Under the pieces are notes generated by a model that saw only the letters and a program-made list of their open reading frames with translations, was not told where the DNA came from and did not search any database. The position numbers were made by a program, and so were the translations under genes. 64,000 bases of DNA from Escherichia phage vB_EcoM_G2469: the sequence record MK327934.1; one strand, given 5' to 3'. This document shows, one piece after another, positions 2,860 to 39,397 of the stretch. Numbering within the stretch: position 1 is the first letter of the stretch; each line of letters starts with the position of its first letter.

Positions 2860-5185
<2,326 letters not shown>

Positions 5186-5212
5186 AAATAAAGCAAATTA
5201 AGAGGAATTAAA

Positions 5213-7195
5213 ATGTCACTTCTCTCTCCGGGCGTTGAGCTCAAAGAAACTACCGTACAGAGTACTGTAGTTAATAACTCCACTGGTACTGCTGCCCTGG
5301 CTGGAAAATTCCAATGGGGACCTGCATTCCAGATTAAACAAATCACTGATGAAGTTGCATTAGTTGATATGTTTGGTACTCCTAATACGGATACAGCAGA
5401 TTATTTCATGTCTGCTATGAACTTCCTTCAATATGGTAATGACCTTCGTGTTGTACGCGCAGTTGACCGTGATACTGCTAAGAACTCATCTCCTGTAGCA
5501 GGCAATATTGAATTCACAATCTCTGCTGCTGGTAGTAACTACGCAGTTGGTGATAAAATTATCGTTAAGTATTTGACCGAAACTGTTGAAGCAGATGGTT
5601 ATGTCACTTCAGTTGATGTCGATGGTAAAATTCTTAACATTTATATCCCAACCGGTAAAATTATTGCTCGTGCAAAAGAAATTAATGAATATCCGGCATT
5701 GGGTTCTAACTGGACCGCCGAAGTTGCCAGTTCTTCTTCTGGACTCTCTGGCGTTATTACAATTGGTTCTATCGTAACCGATTCGGGTATTCTGTTAACT
5801 GAAGTTGAAACTTCTGAAGAAGCTATTACTTCTCTAACTTTCCAAGAATCTATTAAAAAATATGGTGTCCCAGGCGTAGTTGCTCTTTATCCTGGTGAAC
5901 TTGGCGACCAGCTCGAAATTGAAATCGTATCTAAAGCAGACTACGACAAAGGTGCTTCAGCCCAGTTAAAAATTTATCCTGATGGTGGTACTCGCGCATC
6001 TACTGCTAAAGCAATATTTGGGTATGGCCCACAAACTGATGACCAATATGCAATTATCGTTCGTCGTAACGATGCTGTAGTCCAGAGTGTAGTTCTTTCT
6101 ACTAAACGAGGTGAACGCGATATTTATGGTAGTAATATCTTTATTGATGATTTCTTTGCTAAAGGTGCAAGCAATTATATTTTCGCTACTGCACAAGGTT
6201 GGCCAAAAGGTTTCTCTGGCGTAATCAAACTGGGTGGTGGCTTATCATCTAATGAAACGGTTGACGCTGGTGATTTAATGGAAGCTTGGGATTTGTTTGC
6301 TGACCGTGAATCTGTTAATGCGCAGTTGTTTATTGCCGGTTCTTGTGCAGGTGAATCTTTAGAAGTTGCTTCTACAGTTCAGAAACATGTTGTAGCAATT
6401 GGTGATTCTCGTCAAGATTGCTTGGTTCTTTGCTCACCACCACGTGCAACTATAGTCGGTATTCCTGTTAATCGTGCAGTTGATAATCTGGTTGATTGGC
6501 GTACTGCATCAGGAACTTACACTGATAATAACTTTAATGTAAGTTCTACTTACGCTGCTATTGACGGTAACTATAAATATCAATATGACAAATATAATGA
6601 TGTGAATCGTTGGGTTCCATTAGCTGCTGATATTGCTGGTCTTTGTGCTCGCACAGACAATATTTCTCAGCCTTGGATGTCTCCTGCCGGTTATAACCGT
6701 GGACAAATTCTTAACGTTATTAAGCTTGCAATTGAAACTCGCCAAGCGCAGCGTGATCGTTTGTACCAGGAAGCTATTAACCCTGTTACTGGTACCGGCG
6801 GTGATGGATATGTTCTGTATGGTGATAAAACTGCCACTTCTGTTCCTTCACCATTTGACCGTATTAACGTTCGTCGTTTGTTCAATATGGTTAAAACGAA
6901 CATTGGTTCAGCATCTAAATATCGCCTGTTTGAATTGAACAACGCATTTACCCGTTCTTCTTTCCGTACAGAGACTTCTCAATATCTACAGGGTATTAAA
7001 GCTCTCGGTGGTGTATATAACTTTAAAGTTGTTTGTGATACTACCAATAACACACCAGCAGTTATCGACCGTAATGAATTTGTAGCTACTTTCTACTTAC
7101 AACCTGCCCGCTCGATAAATTATATTACGTTGAACTTTGTAGCAACAGCAACCGGTGCCGATTTCGACGAACTGATTGGTGCTGTAGGCGGTTAA
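5213..7195 (+). CDS. 18: contractile tail sheath protein gp18
   Basis: 660 aa; long near-identical stretches to T4 gp18 (MSLLSPGVELKETTVQSTVVNNSTGTAALAGKFQWGPAFQIKQ...). Confidence 0.95.
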   Translation: MSLLSPGVELKETTVQSTVVNNSTGTAALAGKFQWGPAFQIKQITDEVALVDMFGTPNTDTADYFMSAMNFLQYGNDLRVVRAVDRDTAKNSSPVAGNIEFTISAAGSNYAVGDKIIVKYLTETVEADGYVTSVDVDGKILNIYIPTGKIIARAKEINEYPALGSNWTAEVASSSSGLSGVITIGSIVTDSGILLTEVETSEEAITSLTFQESIKKYGVPGVVALYPGELGDQLEIEIVSKADYDKGASAQLKIYPDGGTRASTAKAIFGYGPQTDDQYAIIVRRNDAVVQSVVLSTKRGERDIYGSNIFIDDFFAKGASNYIFATAQGWPKGFSGVIKLGGGLSSNETVDAGDLMEAWDLFADRESVNAQLFIAGSCAGESLEVASTVQKHVVAIGDSRQDCLVLCSPPRATIVGIPVNRAVDNLVDWRTASGTYTDNNFNVSSTYAAIDGNYKYQYDKYNDVNRWVPLAADIAGLCARTDNISQPWMSPAGYNRGQILNVIKLAIETRQAQRDRLYQEAINPVTGTGGDGYVLYGDKTATSVPSPFDRINVRRLFNMVKTNIGSASKYRLFELNNAFTRSSFRTETSQYLQGIKALGGVYNFKVVCDTTNNTPAVIDRNEFVATFYLQPARSINYITLNFVATATGADFDELIGAVGG

Positions 7196-28875: not shown

Positions 28876-28905
28876 ATAGTATCACACATCCATGTGTTTG
28901 TAAAC
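28876..28905 (-). promoter_or_regulatory. early promoter downstream of alt
   Basis: - strand GTTTAC-N18-TACTAT. Confidence 0.5.
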
Positions 28906-30992
28906 TATCCTTGGACAAATTTAAACGGAACTGATTCTAAATCCATTAAAGATGCTAACAATTTCAAACCTTTAGGTGCACTAGTTTTTTCTACAAATGA
29001 GGAGAACGATACCGGCTCAACTGATTCGATTTCACCCGTCATAGCAACCACCTCGCCTGTTTCCATGAGAACATCACCATCGTAAATGACAGCTTCATCT
29101 AACTGGTCTGAGGACATGACTTCAGCTTGAATAAATTTAAGGTTGGATTCTAAACCTGCACCAGTGTCAGATGACGCATCTGTAATTTTATTTATCTGCA
29201 AGAGAATGCCTCTAGGCAAAATAATTTCTTGCTCATTAGGGTGATTACTCAACTGTCCCGGATAAATCACGTTAACTTTATGGGCGCCATCAATAGCCCA
29301 TCCAACGTTAACACGGATTTGTTCTGGTGCATGCATAGCTGTTCTTACTTGACTAGGAGAAATAGTAACACCTTCGTCATTATTGTCAATGTTAAGCTCT
29401 TTGCGAACTTCTTCAGGAGCAAGTCCAAGGGCAACGTTCTCTTTAAACCCACCGAAAATAATAGGAGCTAGTGAAGTGGAAACATAGTTTCTGAAATAGA
29501 ATACCTTATTTTTAACCATTGCTTCGTAAATAGGCATTCTGATAGACTGAGCTCTATATAACGTTAGTCCTTCAGGTAAACGGTCTCCATTTAAAAACGC
29601 CGAATCAAGACCATCAATAGCGCGTTTAACTTCATCTTCATCTGCAACATCGTAAAAATCTGGTTTATAACGACCTAACAACATATTATTGATATCGGTA
29701 TACGCAGAAGAGGCATATTCACGAATAGCTCGTTTTTCAGCAACAGAGTATTGTTTAGGGTCCCGATTCATTGTTATATTAAAGGTGCCTCTAGCCGATT
29801 CTCGTGCATAAGTATACATCACATTAGACAAGAACGCTGATTTACGTTGTTTCCAAGTTTTTTCAGATACTTCAGCTAAAACATCGTCGGCCAGTTGGAA
29901 ATTATCACGTCTAAAATCTTCAAACCATTCGTCTTTAATAGAGTCTGCAATTTCATTTGCAGCTTCAACAAAAGCAGCTAATGCTTTAACAGATGTTGTT
30001 TTTTCAGTTTTAATTTTCTTAGCAAACTTTTCTAAAGTTGGCTTAATAACACTACCATAAGAAACTTCATCAGCAAATCTAAAGGATTCATCAATACGAT
30101 TATAAATCTTATTTTCGATATCAGCAACTAAAGTGCCTTTTGCTGTGGATGATGCTTGGGCCAGTACGATTTCATATGCTTCAGGAAGTAATTCGGCTGT
30201 AGCTGGGCCACTAACTTCTTTAGCAGAATTTTCGTATTTCTGGAATAACTCACCTTCTTGTCGGTCAGCTTCTAAAGATTGACTTGCTGCAATAGCACGA
30301 CGAGAAATTTTAGTACGAGCAATAACAGGCTTATCTTTACGTTTTTCTTCTACAGCAGCAATAGAACCAGCGATAGCCGTTTCTTTGGTGACCTTTTCGC
30401 CGGTCTTTTTACTCACATAAACTTCGCCAACATCAGAATCTACTTTCGTGTACAACTCTGTGTTAATGTTAGGGATGCCTTTAATATCTTCAATGTTGGC
30501 ATTTTTACGAACCATCATCACATAGGTGTGTTTACCTGTGAATTGATACATTGCCGACAATACTTTAAAACGACCACCGGTTTTAGTAGAAACTAAACGA
30601 GCAAGAAGAGTTTGAAGCTGCTGACCACGTCCTTTCAATTTCTTGGTAGGGAATCGGAACAGAACTGCATCCATACGAAGAGCTTTAACCTGTTCATATA
30701 CTGTATTGAAAATGGTGTTGATTGCATCAATAGGAGCAGGACCAAGGCCATTTTTCAATTCAGCGAGATTACCCTTTTCAGACAGACTCATAATAACAAC
30801 ATGAGCGTATTTGTCGCCAAGTTTAACTTGTTTTACGGCGTCGCCTTCGGAAAGGTAAGAGAATAAACGAACTACGATGTTTGTATCGATATCACCAATT
30901 TTCCAGACTTGTGGAACTTTAGCTTTAGGGTTCAAATTGACGACAGGAAGACTGCCTTCAGATTCAAACACTTCATTTAATTGTTCAGACAT
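28905..30992 (-). CDS. alt: Alt mono-ADP-ribosyltransferase (capsid-packaged, injected)
   Basis: 695 aa; extended similarity to T4 Alt as recalled (…KISRRAIA.SQSLE…, RLP.G.TLYR.Q, VFYFRNFVSTSL, C-terminal FKFVQG). Confidence 0.88.
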   Translation of the reverse strand: MSEQLNEVFESEGSLPVVNLNPKAKVPQVWKIGDIDTNIVVRLFSYLSEGDAVKQVKLGDKYAHVVIMSLSEKGNLAELKNGLGPAPIDAINTIFNTVYEQVKALRMDAVLFRFPTKKLKGRGQQLQTLLARLVSTKTGGRFKVLSAMYQFTGKHTYVMMVRKNANIEDIKGIPNINTELYTKVDSDVGEVYVSKKTGEKVTKETAIAGSIAAVEEKRKDKPVIARTKISRRAIAASQSLEADRQEGELFQKYENSAKEVSGPATAELLPEAYEIVLAQASSTAKGTLVADIENKIYNRIDESFRFADEVSYGSVIKPTLEKFAKKIKTEKTTSVKALAAFVEAANEIADSIKDEWFEDFRRDNFQLADDVLAEVSEKTWKQRKSAFLSNVMYTYARESARGTFNITMNRDPKQYSVAEKRAIREYASSAYTDINNMLLGRYKPDFYDVADEDEVKRAIDGLDSAFLNGDRLPEGLTLYRAQSIRMPIYEAMVKNKVFYFRNYVSTSLAPIIFGGFKENVALGLAPEEVRKELNIDNNDEGVTISPSQVRTAMHAPEQIRVNVGWAIDGAHKVNVIYPGQLSNHPNEQEIILPRGILLQINKITDASSDTGAGLESNLKFIQAEVMSSDQLDEAVIYDGDVLMETGEVVAMTGEIESVEPVSFSSFVEKTSAPKGLKLLASLMDLESVPFKFVQG

Positions 30993-31047: not shown

Positions 31048-31236
31048 TTAATCCACAATCGGGAGCAAAGTACGATAAACTTCAAAATTAGGGCCTTTTT
31101 CGTACTTATCAAAATTGTCCATAAAAATATGATAGGAATCGTTATTAGGAAAATCTAATATAATCTGAGAGCAAGAGGTGGAAACATCTCCACCATCCTT
31201 CTTAGCTACAATAACTGTTTCTAAATAAGCTTTCAT
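31048..31236 (-). CDS. hypothetical small protein downstream of gene 30
   Basis: 62 aa; ATG overlaps gene 30 stop (TAATG). Confidence 0.5.
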   Translation of the reverse strand: MKAYLETVIVAKKDGGDVSTSCSQIILDFPNNDSYHIFMDNFDKYEKGPNFEVYRTLLPIVD

Positions 31237-32729
31237 TATAAACCTGTCTGGGACCACGGTCCAAATACGTCTTCAAACGAATCCGCTTCTGTTTTATCAA
31301 AACGGAACCCTTTAATAATTGGGAGGAAAATACCCACAGTACCTTCACGGCCTTTAGAATGAACCCAACCATTACATTCACAATCAGCGATACGTCCAAT
31401 TAATTTACCTTCACGAGCTTCAGCCATTAATCGTTCACGGTCTAAATCATGACGCTCGTCTAAAGGAATAAGAACCTTTACACCGTCAACTGTTTTATGA
31501 GTTGTATCTTTAAAACCTGAACCACAATCGGTTGTAATACGACGACAACGTGATACGAGTTCGACACCACCTAATTTGTTAGGGTCTTTAGAGTGTTCAT
31601 AGTATCCTACAACTTCTAAAGCGATATCAATAACTTCTTTAAATTTAATTAGATTCTTAGAGCGTTTGTTTTCCCAATATGAATCACGGTTTTTAAGGAT
31701 AATACCTTCAAGACCTTGGTCAACATATTTTTTATAAACCACTTTAGCTTCGTCAAGATTACGAACTAACTGATTTTCAATTGGCTCAATTCGCTTAAAG
31801 CCTTCAGCCATATTTTCAAGAGCAGCAAAACGAACATCGTATTTCTGACCTTTAATTTTGCCATCAGAATAGACTTCATCTAAAGGAACATAGTCCCAGG
31901 CTTGAAGAACCATACCTTCCGCTTCTTTAGGAGAAATAGTCCCTTGAAGAGATTTATTTGCTAAACCATTTGAAGTGCTACGGTCTGCAACTTGTACTTC
32001 TTCGGATTCTTCATTACCACCAAATAAGAACGACAGGTCATTTCCTGAGCTCACAGCCTTTTTAATATCGAATGAATGATAAACTAATTCACCGTCGATT
32101 AAAACCCCATTAGGGTGTCTTTCACGAGCTTCTTTAGTCATTTCCATTAGTTCATCTGCTAATAGGGTAAGACCATGGTATTCATTACCAGCACGAGAAA
32201 AGAATTGAACACCATCATCGCGAACTTCAGCGAAACAACGAGCACCATCGGCTTTTAATTGAGCAAATGCAGGCCATTTAATATTTTTAGTAATCAATTT
32301 CTCATCATATGCAGATGCTAACATCTGTGGTTGCAATTGAATAAGTCCAGGCCACACCTTATTCGCGATAGACACTGAAGCACCTACTTCAAGGTCGCGC
32401 ATCATTACACGACGAAGGACTTCTACATCATCAGGTTTACCGTCAGCGATATAACCCATGAGCTCTTTAATTGCAGCATTACCAGTGAGTTTACGAGTGG
32501 CTAATGTGAACTCAATAAAATCCAACATGTCATCTAATTCAAGAAGACCATACGCTTGAGACCTTTCACCCGGTCCTGGCCATTTCTTAATATAATACTG
32601 GATGCCACGTGCATATGTTAAACGATACACACGTTCAAGTAATTTGTTGTCCTTATTTTTCTTAAGGATTTCCTGTTTTGTTTTAGTAGAACCGATCGCA
32701 GCTATTTGGTTTAAAATATCTAAAATCAT
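31236..32729 (-). CDS. 30: ATP-dependent DNA ligase gp30
   Basis: 497 aa; adenylation-site motif KADGAR; very high similarity to T4 DNA ligase as recalled. Confidence 0.96.
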   Translation of the reverse strand: MILDILNQIAAIGSTKTKQEILKKNKDNKLLERVYRLTYARGIQYYIKKWPGPGERSQAYGLLELDDMLDFIEFTLATRKLTGNAAIKELMGYIADGKPDDVEVLRRVMMRDLEVGASVSIANKVWPGLIQLQPQMLASAYDEKLITKNIKWPAFAQLKADGARCFAEVRDDGVQFFSRAGNEYHGLTLLADELMEMTKEARERHPNGVLIDGELVYHSFDIKKAVSSGNDLSFLFGGNEESEEVQVADRSTSNGLANKSLQGTISPKEAEGMVLQAWDYVPLDEVYSDGKIKGQKYDVRFAALENMAEGFKRIEPIENQLVRNLDEAKVVYKKYVDQGLEGIILKNRDSYWENKRSKNLIKFKEVIDIALEVVGYYEHSKDPNKLGGVELVSRCRRITTDCGSGFKDTTHKTVDGVKVLIPLDERHDLDRERLMAEAREGKLIGRIADCECNGWVHSKGREGTVGIFLPIIKGFRFDKTEADSFEDVFGPWSQTGL

Positions 32730-32995
32730 TTGATGTCCTCGATTTTGGTTACGGTTCTATTATAAGCCACTTCATCTAGAAGCGATTTCAGCGTTTTCTG
32801 ATAAGTGGTAATCCATTTACCGAGACCTTCAACATAGTATTCTGAAATGTAGATGAACCCTTGTTCAACACACTCTTTAAATATTTCTGCGTCTTTTACT
32901 GAACGAAACAACGGCCAGTCTCGAAAGAACATGTTAACGTGACCGTAGTCACGCGTTGTGTTTTTGCCATCTGTAATATCATGAACTACAAACAT
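32726..32995 (-). CDS. hypothetical protein (30.1 position)
   Basis: 89-aa ORF overlapping gene 30 start by 4 nt. Confidence 0.6.
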   Translation of the reverse strand: MFVVHDITDGKNTTRDYGHVNMFFRDWPLFRSVKDAEIFKECVEQGFIYISEYYVEGLGKWITTYQKTLKSLLDEVAYNRTVTKIEDIK

Positions 32996-33004
32996 AATTA
33001 ACCC

Positions 33005-33820
33005 TTAACAATTTATAGACCAAGTCCATTTGGACGAATCTAAAGGAAAGTTTTGAATCGTCCACCATGGCTGCATATCGGTTGGTCCTGGAGTTCGCCA
33101 GGTATACGGATTCGACGGAGCGCCGATTTGATTAGGCCATGCGCCTGGACTTGTTGCACCAGATTCTTTAAGCAAATCCGCCAATCGTTTTAAAAGGTCT
33201 TCACGATCTGAATCTGAATTATGCTCAGGTGGAACCAAACGAGATTCAATATCATCCCACGTGTGTACACGTTGTGCAGTACGAGGAATGGCATCACGTT
33301 CACCACGAGCCAACCAATAAATCGGTACATTAAGAATTTCTGCTGCATGGTCACAGTGATGAGCTAAATCGTCAACGTAACAAATCACGTTATATTTTGT
33401 TTTAGCTAGTTCAAATAATTGTTCCTTTGAAGAAACATGACCACACATCATTACTTCAGAGAAAGCGCCTGGGAACAAAGCATTCAAATTAAATTGTCTA
33501 TTCAATCGAGCATCAATTGAATCACCTAGCGCCGTCACGGCTACAAAATTATAGTCTTCTTTTAGTTTATTGATAACTCTAAGAGCATCCGAATAAGGCG
33601 CTAAGTAACGAATAAAATCAGAGCGATTATATTTTTCTATTAATTGTTTACCGAGGTTATCGTCGGTATTGAATAGTTTACCAGGAGAAATAAATTTTTC
33701 ATCCTGAATCATTTTTAAAATATGTTCTAATGGAAGATTATATTTTTGGGCAAAATAAGGAAGTCCAGATTGCCAGCTTAAACATACACCATCAATATCA
33801 GTCAAAATAGTAGGCTTCAT
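33005..33820 (-). CDS. conserved T4-type protein 30.2-like with N-terminal HAD-like motif
   Basis: 271 aa; N-terminal LTDIDGV resembles HAD phosphatase motif I (DxDG[TV]). Confidence 0.65.
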   Translation of the reverse strand: MKPTILTDIDGVCLSWQSGLPYFAQKYNLPLEHILKMIQDEKFISPGKLFNTDDNLGKQLIEKYNRSDFIRYLAPYSDALRVINKLKEDYNFVAVTALGDSIDARLNRQFNLNALFPGAFSEVMMCGHVSSKEQLFELAKTKYNVICYVDDLAHHCDHAAEILNVPIYWLARGERDAIPRTAQRVHTWDDIESRLVPPEHNSDSDREDLLKRLADLLKESGATSPGAWPNQIGAPSNPYTWRTPGPTDMQPWWTIQNFPLDSSKWTWSINC

Positions 33821-34284
33821 AAAGAGTCTCTTAATAGGTTTAACACATCAATAAATTCAGCTTCGGTTAGTATTGTATCATCTTTTGTTAGGTGGCTAGC
33901 CATGCTGTGCTTCAAAATTTTTCCTTTAGAGGCTTGTAAGGCATCACGAAACCCCTTGTTTTGGATCGCGGCTTCAAAATATGCATTTGTGTATAATTCT
34001 TTCCACGCTTCGGAGTATCTTGAAAATGGAACTCCTAGCCAGAAGAGAGTCCCACGGTCCTGAGCTCTTGCATAAGACCTTCCAGCTTGCTGTGCAGCCA
34101 ATCCAGACAACCCAAATATACGTCTTTGTTGTTCAATATTTTTCACCTTACATCCTTGGAGAAATCCTTCAAGACCTCCGAATTGAATACCATCCATAAC
34201 AAAAGGCCATTGAGCAAAGTTACTTAATGCACATGACGGCCATTTGAAATTACTTCTTATTTCTAATTCAGACATCTTTAACAC
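33817..34284 (-). CDS. 30.3-like protein with YbiA/NADAR-like (DUF1768) motif
   Basis: 155 aa; LSNFAQWPFVMDGIQFGGLEGFLQGCKV resembles E. coli YbiA FSNFAAWPIKVDGKTWPTSEHYFQAQKF (recalled). Confidence 0.65.
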   Translation of the reverse strand: MLKMSELEIRSNFKWPSCALSNFAQWPFVMDGIQFGGLEGFLQGCKVKNIEQQRRIFGLSGLAAQQAGRSYARAQDRGTLFWLGVPFSRYSEAWKELYTNAYFEAAIQNKGFRDALQASKGKILKHSMASHLTKDDTILTEAEFIDVLNLLRDSL

Positions 34285-34486
34285 TTATAATTTCAACATC
34301 AGCCCAATGTCCGTATCCAGGTATACGGTCTTCGATAGATAAATTTCTGTCATTTTTAGGCATTTTAATTGACGTAACGTATGGTTCTAAACGGTTTTCC
34401 GCGTAATATGGAAAAACGTCGGTTACACGATAAGTAACTTCAATCATTTCCGTACCAAACAATTTCTGGATTAATTTATTCAACAT
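34268..34486 (-). CDS. hypothetical protein (30.x block)
   Basis: 72-aa ORF in an overlapping gene chain. Confidence 0.5.
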   Translation of the reverse strand: MLNKLIQKLFGTEMIEVTYRVTDVFPYYAENRLEPYVTSIKMPKNDRNLSIEDRIPGYGHWADVEIISVKDV

Positions 34487-34673
34487 GTTTCAACCCTTTA
34501 ATAGGAGATAACTCTTTACCCATACGTATGTCAGAAGTCCCATCAACCCATTGAACAGCATACGCTTCATTGATAATTCCAGCGGCAGTTTTAAATTCGT
34601 TGAGAACTTTAAAAATCATCCCAGGGATTCCAACACCTTTTAATTGGACTGTTTGTGCTATTAAAAATTTCAT
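34476..34673 (-). CDS. hypothetical protein (30.x block)
   Basis: 65-aa ORF with early-type promoter (TATAAT) upstream. Confidence 0.5.
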   Translation of the reverse strand: MKFLIAQTVQLKGVGIPGMIFKVLNEFKTAAGIINEAYAVQWVDGTSDIRMGKELSPIKGLKHVE

Positions 34674-34727
34674 ATTTTTCCACTTACTAAAGAAATCATT
34701 ATACTCTAATCCGTCCTTGGATGTACA

Positions 34728-35009
34728 CTACTTAATGAAATTAATTTCTACCGGATGAACAACAGGTTGAGCAGTGATATATTGAGTAATTGCTTTCATG
34801 ACTAGAGCTTCAGAACCAGGATTTTTCTCAACGAATTCACGTGCTAGGTTATGAGCTTCGAGTTCACTCAATAAACCGGAACGCTGGCATCCACGGTCTT
34901 GAGTACCCTGTTCAGATAAAAGGACTACTACATATTTTTCATCGTCGTAGGGCTTAGCCAGTTGAGCAAATGTTCCTTTACTTCCAAAAGGAGAGTTATG
35001 TCGCCACTT
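34728..35009 (-). other. roughly 93-codon open frame without ATG/GTG start, +1 relative to the upstream gene (possible frameshifted gene or non-canonical start)
   Basis: Hand translation of - strand: ...SPFGSKGTFAQLAKPYDDEKYVVVLLSEQGTQDRGCQRSGLLSELEAHNLAREFVEKNPGSEALVMKAITQYITAQPVVHPVEINFIK*; only internal TTG and a late ATG. Confidence 0.35.
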
Positions 35010-35343
35010 TCACGCCGTGAGGAGTTTCAACCTTCGTATATTCGTGCGGTCCATTTTTCTTAGTTTCTTGATGTGGAACTTCATAGACCTTAGGGTTAGG
35101 ACATTCAATAAAATGCTCATCTAAATCGGTCGAGAATATTAAAGTAAAACAATTACTGAATTTACCAACACCGGCCTGATAAATTTTACCTTCAGAAGTT
35201 CTAATTTCACAAACCGAGCCGGCATCAGTAACTTCTAAAACTTCAAAAGGCTCGATAAGGTCATATGAGAACATGTTTTTAAGGCGTGGAGTAATATCCC
35301 CATTTTTAAAATTCATTTTATAAAAAGTATTAACTTTAAACAT
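34996..35343 (-). CDS. hypothetical protein (30.x block)
   Basis: 115 aa from ATG with SD GAGGAA (ORF track began at an upstream TTG). Confidence 0.55.
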   Translation of the reverse strand: MFKVNTFYKMNFKNGDITPRLKNMFSYDLIEPFEVLEVTDAGSVCEIRTSEGKIYQAGVGKFSNCFTLIFSTDLDEHFIECPNPKVYEVPHQETKKNGPHEYTKVETPHGVKVAT

Positions 35344-35378
35344 AATTTCCTCAATGGGAGCCGAAGCTCCCAATTAAT

Positions 35379-35744
35379 TTAGATATCAAATTCGTTAAGA
35401 ACTACATCAAAGATTGCTTCGAGATGTTCAGGTTTAGCTCGGTTGCTCAGGATATGACGAATCCAAGTTTTAACCAGAAGTTTACGATTAACACCATTCC
35501 AGCAAGGATGAGTACCTAAATCACGCTGACGGAAATCATCATCTAATGCAATTTTAAAATTTGAACCTTCCATCGTGATTGAAACCGTGATACCATTTTC
35601 AAATCGCATATAAACGTAATTAGGAGTCATGCACTGTTCGATTTCACAAACTGTACCGTTTTCGTGTTTCCATAAGCAAATAACTTCAGAAGAACCAGCA
35701 ATACCATTAGAAACATATTTACGTTCGAAGTTGGTGTAGTTCAT
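35379..35744 (-). CDS. hypothetical protein (30.x block)
   Basis: 121-aa ORF downstream of a palindrome-containing early promoter. Confidence 0.55.
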   Translation of the reverse strand: MNYTNFERKYVSNGIAGSSEVICLWKHENGTVCEIEQCMTPNYVYMRFENGITVSITMEGSNFKIALDDDFRQRDLGTHPCWNGVNRKLLVKTWIRHILSNRAKPEHLEAIFDVVLNEFDI

Positions 35745-35785
35745 TTTATTCTCCAGATGTTTAAGTTGTTTGTTGGTACAGGTCT

Positions 35786-35814
35786 ATAATAACATAACCT
35801 GTACCAAAGTAAAC
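35786..35814 (-). promoter_or_regulatory. early promoter with -10 embedded in an 11-bp-arm inverted repeat
   Basis: - strand GTTTAC-N17-TATTAT; the -10 lies between palindrome arms TTGGTACAGGT and ACCTGTACCAA. Confidence 0.5.
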
Positions 35815-35818
35815 TGTT

Positions 35819-36187
35819 TTATGCAACTTTAATCCAATTGTCTAAATTTAAAACACCTTTGGCTTTCATTTTTTCGATCAGGTTATCTGCTGTAATGCGT
35901 CCATTTTGATACCATGTAACATCTTCAGAGTAACCAGTTTCTTCGTCAACATATGTTTCTGAACGAATTTTACCGGTAATAATAGTTTTTAATTCATATG
36001 TGTCACCTGTGAAAAAGTTTGCTAACACAATTTTCCAAGAGAAATCATCTGAAGGACCTTCAGGGGTCATACAACCTACGAACTCAAATTGCTCTTTGTA
36101 TAACATCCACTGGAATTCTTTAATTTCGATAGCTTTATAACCGTCGTGGTCTTTACATTTGATGTATGAGTTCAGATTGATTTTCAT
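35819..36187 (-). CDS. hypothetical protein (30.x block)
   Basis: 122-aa ORF with GTTTAC-N17-TACTAT promoter upstream. Confidence 0.55.
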   Translation of the reverse strand: MKINLNSYIKCKDHDGYKAIEIKEFQWMLYKEQFEFVGCMTPEGPSDDFSWKIVLANFFTGDTYELKTIITGKIRSETYVDEETGYSEDVTWYQNGRITADNLIEKMKAKGVLNLDNWIKVA

Positions 36188-36229
36188 TTTGTTCTCCGGT
36201 TTGTTTTATCGATTAGGTGGTACAAGTCT

Positions 36230-36258
36230 ATAGTAACACATCCTACAGGAGAGTAAAC
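36230..36258 (-). promoter_or_regulatory. early promoter (GTTTAC-N17-TACTAT)
   Basis: - strand GTTTACTCTCCTGTAGGATGTGTTACTATAG upstream of ORF 35819..36187. Confidence 0.55.
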
Positions 36259-36296
36259 ATCTTTTTTTAAACTTTTTCTGCCCTAAACGCACAAAA

Positions 36297-36314
36297 GGGA
36301 GACCGAAGTCTCCC
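36297..36314 (-). terminator. rho-independent terminator after the 59-aa basic ORF (UUCG loop on - strand)
   Basis: - strand GGGAGAC-UUCG-GUCUCCC followed by UUUUGUGCGUUU. Confidence 0.65.
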
Positions 36315-36319
36315 TAAAA

Positions 36320-36499
36320 TTATGCAACAACCTTTCCAAAACGAGAAGCATCATCTCGAAGAACTGCACGTGCTCTGCGCATGATCTTCTCAACTGTTTG
36401 ATTAATACGAGAGTTCGACCCACGCTTGTATCCAGCGCGTTTAGAGGTACCATCAACTTTCTTTTCAACTGCTTTCTTTGCTTTAGCTTGTTTTGCCAT
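36320..36499 (-). CDS. hypothetical small basic protein (59 aa)
   Basis: Hand-translated MAKQAKAKKAVEKKVDGTSKRAGYKRGSNSRINQTVEKIMRRARAVLRDDASRFGKVVA; followed by UUCG hairpin and T-run. Confidence 0.45.
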   Translation of the reverse strand: MAKQAKAKKAVEKKVDGTSKRAGYKRGSNSRINQTVEKIMRRARAVLRDDASRFGKVVA

Positions 36500-36762
36500 T
36501 ATAAATTCTCTTTAAATGAAAATGCAGGACTTATTGACATTGCCTGCGCAAGCCCTCAAGGGGAACATAGGTTTTGGATATTTAACGACAGGATAACCAT
36601 AAACCCGTCATCATACCAACCACGACTTAGACAGATAACCTTTTTCTGACGCGTGATAGTACAAAATACATTCAAGAGGTACACCGTAAAACTGCCGGGG
36701 ACTTAAAACTATAATGATTCGCAAATCATTAATCAGACAGTTCGACGGCTCCTCGATTTAAC

Positions 36763-37834: not shown

Positions 37835-38405
37835 AAAAGTTTCGGATTTGTTCCCAATTCAGAGAACGAAGATTATTACGAGAGTACTGAATTACTTCAA
37901 TGCCGGCTTGTTTTAGAATGTCTGCCCAATTTTCAGGAGATCTGTCATATAATTCTGCGTATACAACCTTTTTAATACCTGACTGCGTAATAGCTTTAGT
38001 GCAATCAGGACATGGAGAAAGCGTCGTATACAACGTAGCACCTTCAATAGAATTACCTTTACGAGCTGCAAACAAAATTGCATTCAATTCAGCATGGATT
38101 TCGTTATTAGCAGACCATGCACTATGAGCGGCCCGATGTTCTTTAGCCAAAACAAAATTATCCACCCGTCCAAATGCTGTAGTGCCTTCTTTATGCCCAG
38201 CAACGATGACCGGGCTTGGTTTATTCTTCAACCAACCGTTTTCGGATGCATGTTCGCAACAGTTTGTACCACCTGAAGGAGAGCCATTATACCCTGTAGA
38301 AATAATGCGTCCATCTTTTTCAATGACGGCGCCAACTTTCCATGAACAACATTTTGATTCTTGAGAAATCAGATAAGCAATCTGAAGATATGTGCTAGCT
38401 TTCAT
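37824..38405 (-). CDS. cd: dCMP deaminase
   Basis: 193 aa; zinc-binding motifs HAE and PCPDC; T4 cd length. Confidence 0.93.
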   Translation of the reverse strand: MKASTYLQIAYLISQESKCCSWKVGAVIEKDGRIISTGYNGSPSGGTNCCEHASENGWLKNKPSPVIVAGHKEGTTAFGRVDNFVLAKEHRAAHSAWSANNEIHAELNAILFAARKGNSIEGATLYTTLSPCPDCTKAITQSGIKKVVYAELYDRSPENWADILKQAGIEVIQYSRNNLRSLNWEQIRNFCGE

Positions 38406-39397
38406 TATTGAACCTTATTAATATAAGTTAACAGCTCTTTAGTTTGTTCCCAACTGATGCACGCATCGGTAATGGAAACGCCATAGGACATATTATCAGA
38501 AATTTTTTGATTTCCTTCATGTAGGAATGATTCTATCATAATTCCTTTGACCAAATCATTAGCTGCTAAATTTTTACCAATACCAATTTGATTGCTATAA
38601 TGCCCAGCAGCGTTTGCATGGCTACAGTCAACCATTACATAATGATTCATACCTACTGCACTTGCTTTGTTAGAAGCTTCTTGAATATCAGAAGAATGAT
38701 AGTTCGGGCCGTTGGTCCCGCCACGCAATACGATATGCGTATTCTGATTACCTTCAGCTTCAACAATGCCTACAGTACCATCGACGTCCATACCCATATA
38801 CCGATGAGGCCTGGCGGCACTATACATCGCGTCTGTAGCTACTTTAATAGAACCATTGGTTGCGTTCTTGAAGCCTACGCACATCGGTAGACCTGAAGCA
38901 ATTTCACGATGTGTCTGACTTTCAGTCGTACGGGCGCCAATAGCAACCCATGAGAAAATACCAGAAAGATACTTAATCGTGAATGGGTCTAATACTTCAG
39001 TTGCTAATGGAAGTCCCATACGTAGAAGTTTACGACACAATGTTCGTGCAACTATAAGACCGTGGTTCATATCAAAACTTCCGTCAAGATATGGATCATT
39101 TACAAGACCTTTCCAACCTACGGTAGTTCGAGGCTTTTCAAAATAAACGCGCATCACTAACAGAACATTAGGAAGACGAGTTTGAAGTTCAGCCAGACGT
39201 TTGCCGTATTCAACAGCAGCAATAGGGTCATGAATTGAACAAGGACCTACAACAATAAGTTTGCGTGGGTCTTCACCGTTCATAATCGAATTAACTTGTT
39301 CGCGATGAGAAGCCACTTGTGATGCGTAAGCTTCCGACAAAGGAATAATCTCAGCCAGTTCTTTTGGAGAAATAAGTTTTCTGACGACAGGTAACAT
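38405..39397 (-). CDS. 3-deoxy-D-arabino-heptulosonate 7-phosphate (DAHP) synthase, class I (AroG/AroF/AroH-like)
   Basis: 330 aa; blocks LIVVGPCSIHDP, VMRVYFEKPRTTVGWKGL.NDP, AIGARTTESQ.HRE.ASGL, GFKN.T.GSIKVA, IVLRGG, ESFLHEGNQ, GVSITDACI.WE align with E. coli AroG (recalled); stop overlaps cd start (TAATG). Confidence 0.9.
   Translation of the reverse strand: MLPVVRKLISPKELAEIIPLSEAYASQVASHREQVNSIMNGEDPRKLIVVGPCSIHDPIAAVEYGKRLAELQTRLPNVLLVMRVYFEKPRTTVGWKGLVNDPYLDGSFDMNHGLIVARTLCRKLLRMGLPLATEVLDPFTIKYLSGIFSWVAIGARTTESQTHREIASGLPMCVGFKNATNGSIKVATDAMYSAARPHRYMGMDVDGTVGIVEAEGNQNTHIVLRGGTNGPNYHSSDIQEASNKASAVGMNHYVMVDCSHANAAGHYSNQIGIGKNLAANDLVKGIMIESFLHEGNQKISDNMSYGVSITDACISWEQTKELLTYINKVQ

Follow-up and report, generated by a model that had tools for sequence, protein, structure and literature searches.

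Two adjacent minus-strand genes of Escherichia phage vB_EcoM_G2469, 30.2 and 30.3, lie close to alt, the gene for a packaged ADP-ribosyltransferase (ART), which raises the question of whether their products are partners, of each other or of Alt, or independent neighbours. The locus was analysed within a stretch of 64,000 nucleotides from sequence record MK327934.1 (the window). An earlier sequence-only reading of the window had grouped the genes as a HAD-like and NADAR-like pair and had speculated on a functional link to Alt. We consider it highly likely that they instead specify two independent enzymes, AdfN (30.3) and a HAD phosphatase (30.2), within the packed, co-directional early gene run 30.4-30.3-30.2-30.1-30 of Mosigvirus. 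The two open reading frames (ORFs) and their junction are:

33005 to 33820, minus strand: gene 30.2, 271 amino acids; the ORF begins MKPTILTDIDGV
33817 to 34275, minus strand: gene 30.3 (adfN), 152 amino acids, a NADAR-superfamily DNA ADP-ribosylglycohydrolase of the phage (His) subfamily, intact allele, assigned by Pfam PF08010 and orthology to T4
33817 to 34284, minus strand: gene 30.3 read as a 155-amino acid ORF from a GTG, containing LSNFAQWPFVMDG...EGFLQGCKV
33817 to 33820, minus strand: 4-nucleotide ATGA overlap of the 30.3 stop and the 30.2 start, from ORF coordinates and sequence

Judged by a strong match to Pfam Phage_30_3 (PF08010; E = 4.5e-69, 231 bits against a cut-off of 36), by PHROG families 420 and 652 and by synteny with T4 and RB69, the assignment of both genes to their T4 counterparts is correct. 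The NADAR gene is the already published counter-defence gene adfN, and there is little new in its identity.

Gene 30.3 and the NADAR fold

The product of 30.3 shared 96% amino acid and 90% nucleotide identity with T4 gp30.3 and had the same length of 152 residues. The sequence-only reading had placed the ORF and its EGFLQGCKV motif correctly, but not its start. Translation almost certainly begins at the ATG (34275) and not at the GTG: the annotations of T4 and RB69 use this ATG, T4 does not share the GTG, and the catalytic residues then fall at the published positions E36 and K43. The discarded segment is:

34276 to 34284, minus strand: upstream GTG extension, three extra codons, probably untranslated

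A search with the single 30.3 sequence found only 19 close relatives, and a single-sequence phmmer search of the PDB found nothing. A profile built from seven of the 19 relatives recovered 3124 proteins, several of which carried PF08010 and PF08719 (NADAR) together or bore the JGI name 'YbiA (DUF1768)', and a filter-free HMMER scan for the family returned 1376 cluster representatives. PF08719 was matched independently by 12 of 45 aligned family members (best E = 3.4e-6). The AlphaFold (AF2) model built on the family alignment had a predicted local distance difference test score (pLDDT) of 95.4 and a predicted template modelling score of 0.90. When it was compared with the PDB by Foldseek, the top three matches were YbiA (2b3w), Phytophthora PnNADAR (8bau, with ADP-ribose) and G. 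lovleyi NADAR (8bat); all remaining matches had a probability of 0.03 or less. The NADAR-like fold proposed for the 155-residue ORF was thus confirmed by the fold search, the profile links to PF08719 and the conservation of the catalytic residues, on which, by the sequence-only reading, the assignment would turn. The residues and the terminal helix map as follows:

34147 to 34170, minus strand: codons E36 to K43 (EGFLQGCK), catalytic; invariant E36 and nearly invariant K43 across 45 PF08010 proteins, corresponding to E43 and K50 of PnNADAR
33907 to 33909, minus strand: codon H123 in the last beta-strand, subfamily signature, invariant in the 45-protein alignment
33823 to 33864, minus strand: AdfN C-terminal helix, residues 138-151, seen in the model; present here, lost in RB69

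In PnNADAR, E43 and K50 contact the distal ribose and the phosphates, and the catalytic position on the last strand holds Glu in members of the YbiA subfamily, whereas NADARs linked to DarT1 have Asp there and those of phages have His (Schuller et al. 2023, PMC11543638). Since the third catalytic position of 30.3 is His123, the protein is a NADAR but not of the YbiA type, and of the earlier comparison with the E. coli YbiA/NADAR core only the NADAR part stands. YbiA, the founding NADAR/DUF1768 protein, was nevertheless the best structural match (E = 1.8e-4, template modelling (TM) score 0.66, 18% identity) and likewise hydrolyses guanine-linked ADP-ribose in vitro (PMC11125620), but it has a last-strand Glu and is a housekeeping N-glycosidase of riboflavin intermediates. 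DarG1 (G. lovleyi 8bat, E. coli C7; PMC11543638) has the same fold (Foldseek probability 0.93, TM score 0.58), performs the same hydrolysis of guanine-linked ADP-ribose as T4-type AdfN and represents the clade reported to be closest to T4-type NADARs. The window protein differs from it in lacking the N-terminal extension and in having His for the catalytic Asp.

On DNA, T4 gp30.3 cleaves ADP-ribose that is linked to guanine but spares the thymine-linked form (Cihlova et al., Toxins 2024, PMC11125620), and was renamed AdfN, for anti-DarT factor NADAR (Johannesman et al., Nat Commun 2025, PMC11825919). In the latter study, T4 and T2 without adfN formed no plaques on DarTG1 hosts, T4 gp30.3 was necessary and sufficient against DarTG1, and purified AdfN, but not its E36A variant, freed DarT1-modified DNA of ADP-ribose; both E36A and K43A impaired T4 AdfN (PMC11825919). 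RB69 was uniquely DarTG1-sensitive, with a T insertion at gene position 411 that shortens AdfN by 15 residues and removes its last helix; ectopic AdfN fully rescued this phage, and the C-terminal helix is needed for full activity (PMC11825919). Unlike DarG1, AdfN from T4 failed to counter DarT1 toxicity in uninfected cells, and it rescued T5 or Bas25 only weakly, from which Johannesman et al. concluded that a T-even factor is required for full AdfN activity (PMC11825919).

The window gene is orthologous to T4 adfN, with which it shares its length, its position between 30.4 and 30.2, E36, K43, H123 and the C-terminal helix (PMC11825919, PMC11125620), and from which it differs by six substitutions and a Mosigvirus rather than Tequatrovirus backbone. 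An alignment of the window, RB69 and T4 placed the extra T of RB69 after gene nucleotide 410 (window ~33865-33866), and the window allele lacked it. During infection, host DarT1 would ADP-ribosylate guanines in replicating phage DNA; AdfN, a free-standing NADAR-fold glycohydrolase, would bind the ADP-ribose with K43 at the phosphates and with E36 and H123 flanking the distal ribose, and its hydrolysis of the N-glycosidic bond would restore clean DNA and allow replication to proceed. This activity was shown for the T4 protein and, given the 96% identity, would extend to that of the window. Because the allele is full length, this similar to T4 AdfN and free of the RB69 frameshift, it is predicted to be active and the phage to be DarTG1-resistant, a prediction that draws on T4, T2 and BASEL phages. 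Nothing of substance weighs against this reading; the allele carries six substitutions relative to T4 gp30.3. No DarT toxin gene was found beside 30.3 in the window, where it lies between 30.4 and 30.2 and the only nearby ART is the exotoxin-type Alt, so adfN is an orphan here.

Many database versions of 30.3 (clusters P0102-P0117) were truncated, to 126, 109, 91 or 89 amino acids, and further versions in the same clusters were fused to fragments of neighbouring families (PF11097, PF06919, PF06019), which suggests recurrent natural disruption of adfN, as in RB69. The alternative-frame ORF 30.3' of T4 (window 33912-34139, minus strand) was considered as a third element of the locus and rejected, as its start codon is ATA here and an internal stop interrupts it; it is probably no real gene.

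Gene 30.2 and the HAD fold

The sequence-only reading had noted that the 271-residue ORF opens with a HAD motif I-like DIDGV, and HAD membership was upheld by four motifs and the fold. It had also looked to profile searches to recover both families, and in this respect the two proteins parted: NADAR was recovered, whereas 30.2 alone stayed below the HAD cut-offs of Pfam and NCBIfam, its family motifs and fold being those of HAD. The protein matched phrog_420 (E = 3e-77) and had 67% amino acid identity to T4 gp30.2, which is encoded at the same position. It had 98 homologues, whose named sources were all T4-like phages except for one labelled Acinetobacter baumannii; contigs of about 160-180 kb contributed many of the homologues. 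In an alignment of 46 sequences, reaching down to 38% identity, the four HAD motifs were invariant or at least 90% conserved: D8-I-D10-G11-V12 (I), T96 (II), K132 (III) and D150-D151 (IV). The AlphaFold model was confident over residues 1-190, with pLDDT below 50 for residues 227-271, and showed a Rossmannoid core, interrupted after motif I by a cap insertion. It matched 112 PDB chains at E ≤ 0.001, and all among the matches listed were HAD enzymes, headed by the deoxyribonucleotidase-like 3bwv and cytosolic deoxyribonucleotidase (cdN) 2jao. The protein is laid out as follows:

33785 to 33799, minus strand: HAD motif I, DIDGV, with D8 and D10, from the 46-sequence alignment
33221 to 33820, minus strand: residues 1-200, HAD Rossmannoid core; helical C1 cap at about residues 13-76
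33005 to 33220, minus strand: residues 201-271, an amphipathic helix (203-221) and then a disordered Trp/Pro-rich tail, from the model

Several sequence comparisons weigh against the HAD assignment. The window protein scored 14.7 bits with HAD_2 in Pfam, below the cut-off of 23.8, and NCBIfam gave nothing usable (TIGR01428, 13.7 bits against a cut-off of 125). The family profile found no significant match among PDB sequences (E = 0.15), and the single protein gave hits at chance level; together these searches reached a mouse 5'(3')-deoxyribonucleotidase at E = 0.15-0.55. In favour of the assignment are weak Pfam matches among family members (Hydrolase in 10, NT5C in six and HAD_2 in five). HAD membership rests on motifs and fold because the family is too divergent for sequence models. 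The assignment itself is already known from a few GenBank records that name the protein a HAD-like hydrolase. A full-text literature search found no published function for gp30.2 and no functional data in T4 genomics reviews.

We propose that gp30.2 is a Mg2+-dependent HAD phosphatase in which, following established HAD chemistry, D8 would be the nucleophile and D10 the acid/base, with T96, K132 and D150/D151 completing the site, and in which the helical C1 cap would cover the active site. A C1-cap architecture is typical of enzymes for small phosphorylated metabolites rather than DNA ends. The Asp at the +2 position, typical of phosphatases, and the helical cap lead us to read 30.2 as a small-molecule phosphatase, and our best guess at its substrate is a nucleoside monophosphate, in the manner of a 5'(3')-deoxyribonucleotidase. 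The NT5C 5'(3')-deoxyribonucleotidases (cdN 2jao/2i7d, mdN 1mh9, S. epidermidis 3bwv) share with it the C1-capped HAD fold and a DxDGV followed by an aromatic residue, W16 of 30.2 being aligned with the Phe of the cdN DMDGVLADF segment. Though these were the top Foldseek hits, 30.2 is only 13-20% identical to them, falls below PF06941 and has an extra C-terminal helix and disordered tail.

The tail of 30.2 (…PGAWPNQIGAPSNPYTWRTPGPTDMQPWWTIQNFPLDSSKWTWSINC) varies in length and sequence, and about half of the homologues lack it; many homologues end at ~200 amino acids. It may be a docking segment. Its unusual, disordered character would also fit a catalytically dead HAD scaffold whose function resides in the tail, an explanation that we regard as extremely improbable, since the 46 sequences keep the catalytic residues with little or no variation, while roughly half of the homologues have no tail.

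Candidate partners of 30.2: AdfN, DNA ligase and Alt

The predicted phosphatase encoded between adfN and the ligase gene might serve either of them, or Alt further downstream. The genes concerned are:

34268 to 34486, minus strand: 30.4, 72 amino acids, phrog_2042; overlaps the adfN start by 8 nucleotides
32726 to 32995, minus strand: 30.1, DUF3045, from Pfam
31236 to 32729, minus strand: gene 30, ATP-dependent DNA ligase, from Pfam; together with 30.1 directly downstream of 30.2 (31236-32995)
28905 to 30992, minus strand: alt, packaged ADP-ribosyltransferase, Pfam ADPrib_exo_Tox (E = 5.9e-28) and RB69 and T4 annotation

A first line of evidence comes from transposon-insertion sequencing (Tn-seq) of T4, for which we used the supplementary tables of the HIDEN-SEQ preprint (sheet S6, control versus DarTG1). 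Exactly two genes genome-wide, 30.3 and 30.4, were significant on DarTG1 (HIDEN-SEQ preprint). The log2 fold changes were:

30.3: -7.25 (150-fold drop), adjusted p = 0
30.4: -1.79, adjusted p = 0.014
30.2: -0.12, p = 0.61, 71 TA sites
alt: -0.01, not significant
61.2 (adfA): -0.34, not significant

Gene 30.2 was likewise neutral in M9 versus LB (log2 fold change -0.10), and on K-12 insertions were tolerated at 72 of 72 TA sites (HIDEN-SEQ preprint). It is dispensable in the laboratory, and it is not needed for the action of AdfN against DarTG1. These values bear directly on the suggestion that gp30.2 is the T-even factor of AdfN, stabilising or localising it or clearing its product. Such a role would suit the observation that T4 AdfN works in RB69, whose 30.2 is intact, but fails in uninfected cells and in T5 or Bas25, and would suit the translational coupling of 30.3 to 30.2 and an independent HAD-NADAR neighbourhood on another contig (locus L114, below). 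The screen largely refutes it, however; purified AdfN is active alone in vitro, and most 30.2 lineages have no adjacent NADAR. We rejected 30.2 as an AdfN co-factor on the DarTG1 data and hold the suggestion to be highly improbable.

The upstream gene 30.4, which overlaps the adfN start, was the sole DarTG1-dependent T4 locus besides adfN. Its depletion may reflect polarity on adfN, or 30.4 may be the T-even factor that AdfN requires.

Gene neighbourhoods gave a second line of evidence. Relatives of 30.2 were collected at 77 viral loci, of which 74 were bona fide and fell into 37 lineages at 90% identity. Loci were viewed with 6-kb flanks, and on the NADAR side 80 of 229 loci were viewed, so that co-occurrence is sampled. 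Of the 37 lineages, 36 had a ligase gene no more than 1.5 kb downstream of 30.2, 34 had it within 600 bp and 13 within 150 bp; these included phages whose 30.2 is only ~40% identical to that of the window, while 30.1 and 30.3 come and go. A PF08010 NADAR lay upstream within 100 bp in nine lineages and within 1.5 kb in 15, and 21 of 36 lineages had no NADAR in the 6-kb flank. Conversely, a 30.2 relative was found within 6 kb of the NADAR at 21 of the 80 viral NADAR loci viewed. In at least 10 complete T4-like genomes the NADAR was ~59 kb from the 30.2-ligase locus, for example in UViG_2974718797 (locus L023 versus L129). It is the ligase gene, not the NADAR, that 30.2 goes with across lineages. 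The pairing of 30.2 with 30.3 drawn from their adjacency in the window was not sustained, as 30.2 is neutral on DarTG1 and the adjacency is not conserved across T4-like phages.

The remote NADAR genes (loci L107, L111, L129, L133-L135, L141, L146, L152 and L153) had conserved small neighbours of their own (clusters 11, 13, 14 and 19-21). At locus L114 (IMGVR_UViG_2786546475_000015, 4736-6456), on an unrelated 166-kb viral contig, a divergent 190-amino acid 30.2-like HAD (MSKFLLTDIDGCVLNW...) lay ~680 bp upstream of a PF08010 NADAR, in the order opposite to that of T4; no ligase gene stood less than 2.5 kb from the NADAR. This locus is an isolated hint of a HAD-NADAR association.

The near-universal company of the ligase gene, found no further than 600 bp away in 34 of the 37 lineages even where 30.2 has diverged to ~40% identity, would agree with a partnership in which gp30.2 assists the DNA ligase gp30, for instance by removing 3'-phosphates or nucleotide by-products from nicks. 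We nonetheless think this unlikely. The synteny may simply be inherited, T4 already has the 3'-phosphatase PseT, the ligase is essential whereas 30.2 is fully dispensable, and C1-capped HADs usually take small molecules rather than DNA ends, the cap being the reason for which we consider a DNA-end phosphatase role unlikely. Quite unlikely, too, is a role in conflict or repair in which gp30.2 would dephosphorylate nucleotide- or ADP-ribose-derived phosphates, either with the ligase or with AdfN against some defence, other than DarTG1, that ADP-ribosylates DNA or RNA. If true, it would explain both the retention of 30.2 beside the ligase gene in almost every T4-like lineage and the HAD-NADAR arrangement of L114.

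The proposed link to Alt fared no better. A distance of 2.0 kb separates alt from the 3' end of 30.2, and one of 2.8 kb separates it from 30.3; gene 30 and 30.1 intervene. All three might form one ADP-ribose module in which the NADAR would reverse or trim Alt or Mod marks or NAD-derived products and the HAD protein would dephosphorylate the released product. They lie within 5.4 kb on one strand, 30.3 and 30.2 are coupled by their 4-nucleotide overlap, and it had already been remarked that T4-like NADARs are early genes near ARTs (Iyer et al. 2022). Yet Alt is an exotoxin-type ART (PF03496) whose annotated target is a protein, RNA polymerase, whereas the NADARs tested act on guanine-linked ADP-ribose in DNA; alt, modA and modB were not among the two significant genes in the DarTG1 screen, in which alt and 30.2 were both neutral; and the proximity is conserved T4 gene order, with the NADAR ~59 kb away in many T4-like genomes. 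We judge a single module to be very unlikely. The demonstrated role of gp30.3 is the reversal of guanine ADP-ribosylation by host DarT1 in phage DNA and not the processing of what Alt produces, and the neutrality of alt in Tn-seq lends no support to the functional link to Alt that the sequence-only reading had offered.

Some observations weigh against the independence of the two enzymes: the ATGA overlap, the adjacency of NADAR and 30.2 in nine lineages and their juxtaposition at L114 leave room for a link in other conditions, and T4 AdfN needs a T-even factor for full activity. On the evidence from the screen and the neighbourhoods, we favour AdfN and the HAD phosphatase as separate enzymes of one early gene run.

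The surrounding locus and the adfN allele of Mosigvirus

The window derives from an RB69-like T-even phage of the genus Mosigvirus; over the 2 kb around 30.2 and 30.3, identity was 99.0% with Escherichia phage vB_Eco_F27 and 97-98% with many further Mosigvirus records, in nearly all of which both products are labelled 'hypothetical protein'. The minus-strand gene run at 28.9-39.4 kb comprises alt, 30, 30.1, 30.2, 30.3 and 30.4 and, beyond these, rIII, 31, cd and a DAHP synthase gene, and the order from alt to 30.4 is that of RB69 and T4. A scan of 32600-36600 for sigma-70 promoters and terminators found 13 sites against 12.1 in shuffled sequence, no excess.

In the vB_Eco_F27 record (OP870146.1; L160), some product names were shifted to a neighbouring gene: the 270-nucleotide 30.1 ORF is labelled 'DNA ligase' and the actual ligase 'hypothetical protein', a second 'ADP-ribosyltransferase' label stands on alt.1 and a 'tail fiber' label on 31.1. 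Relative to the same phage, the window has a 1-nucleotide insertion at ~35008 (within 34728-35373, minus strand) in the 30.5/30.6 region, which breaks a 204-amino acid ORF into a 125-amino acid piece and an out-of-frame remainder; the split ORF is either a pseudogene or a sequencing error. Directly after cd, the window encodes a class I DAHP synthase of 330 amino acids (38405-39397, minus strand; Pfam E = 2.2e-75), for which RB69 and T4 have no gene at that position. This known auxiliary metabolic gene was found in 212 phage records, mostly of Escherichia and Klebsiella T4-like phages.

Compared with T4, the flanks of adfN (30.4, 30.2, 30.1, 30 and alt) were just 60-71% identical in nucleotides, against 90% for adfN itself, and 30.7, rIII and 31 formed similar islands at 87-88%. 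This mosaic pattern, read from nucleotide identities, suggests recent exchange of adfN between the Tequatrovirus and Mosigvirus lineages.

For the T-even phages at large, the Tn-seq data narrow the question of which factor AdfN requires, pointing away from 30.2 and towards 30.4, the effect on which is possibly polar. For Mosigvirus, the intact adfN of vB_EcoM_G2469 sets this phage apart from the type phage RB69, and it would be expected to escape DarTG1, which is relevant to host-range prediction and to phage therapy.

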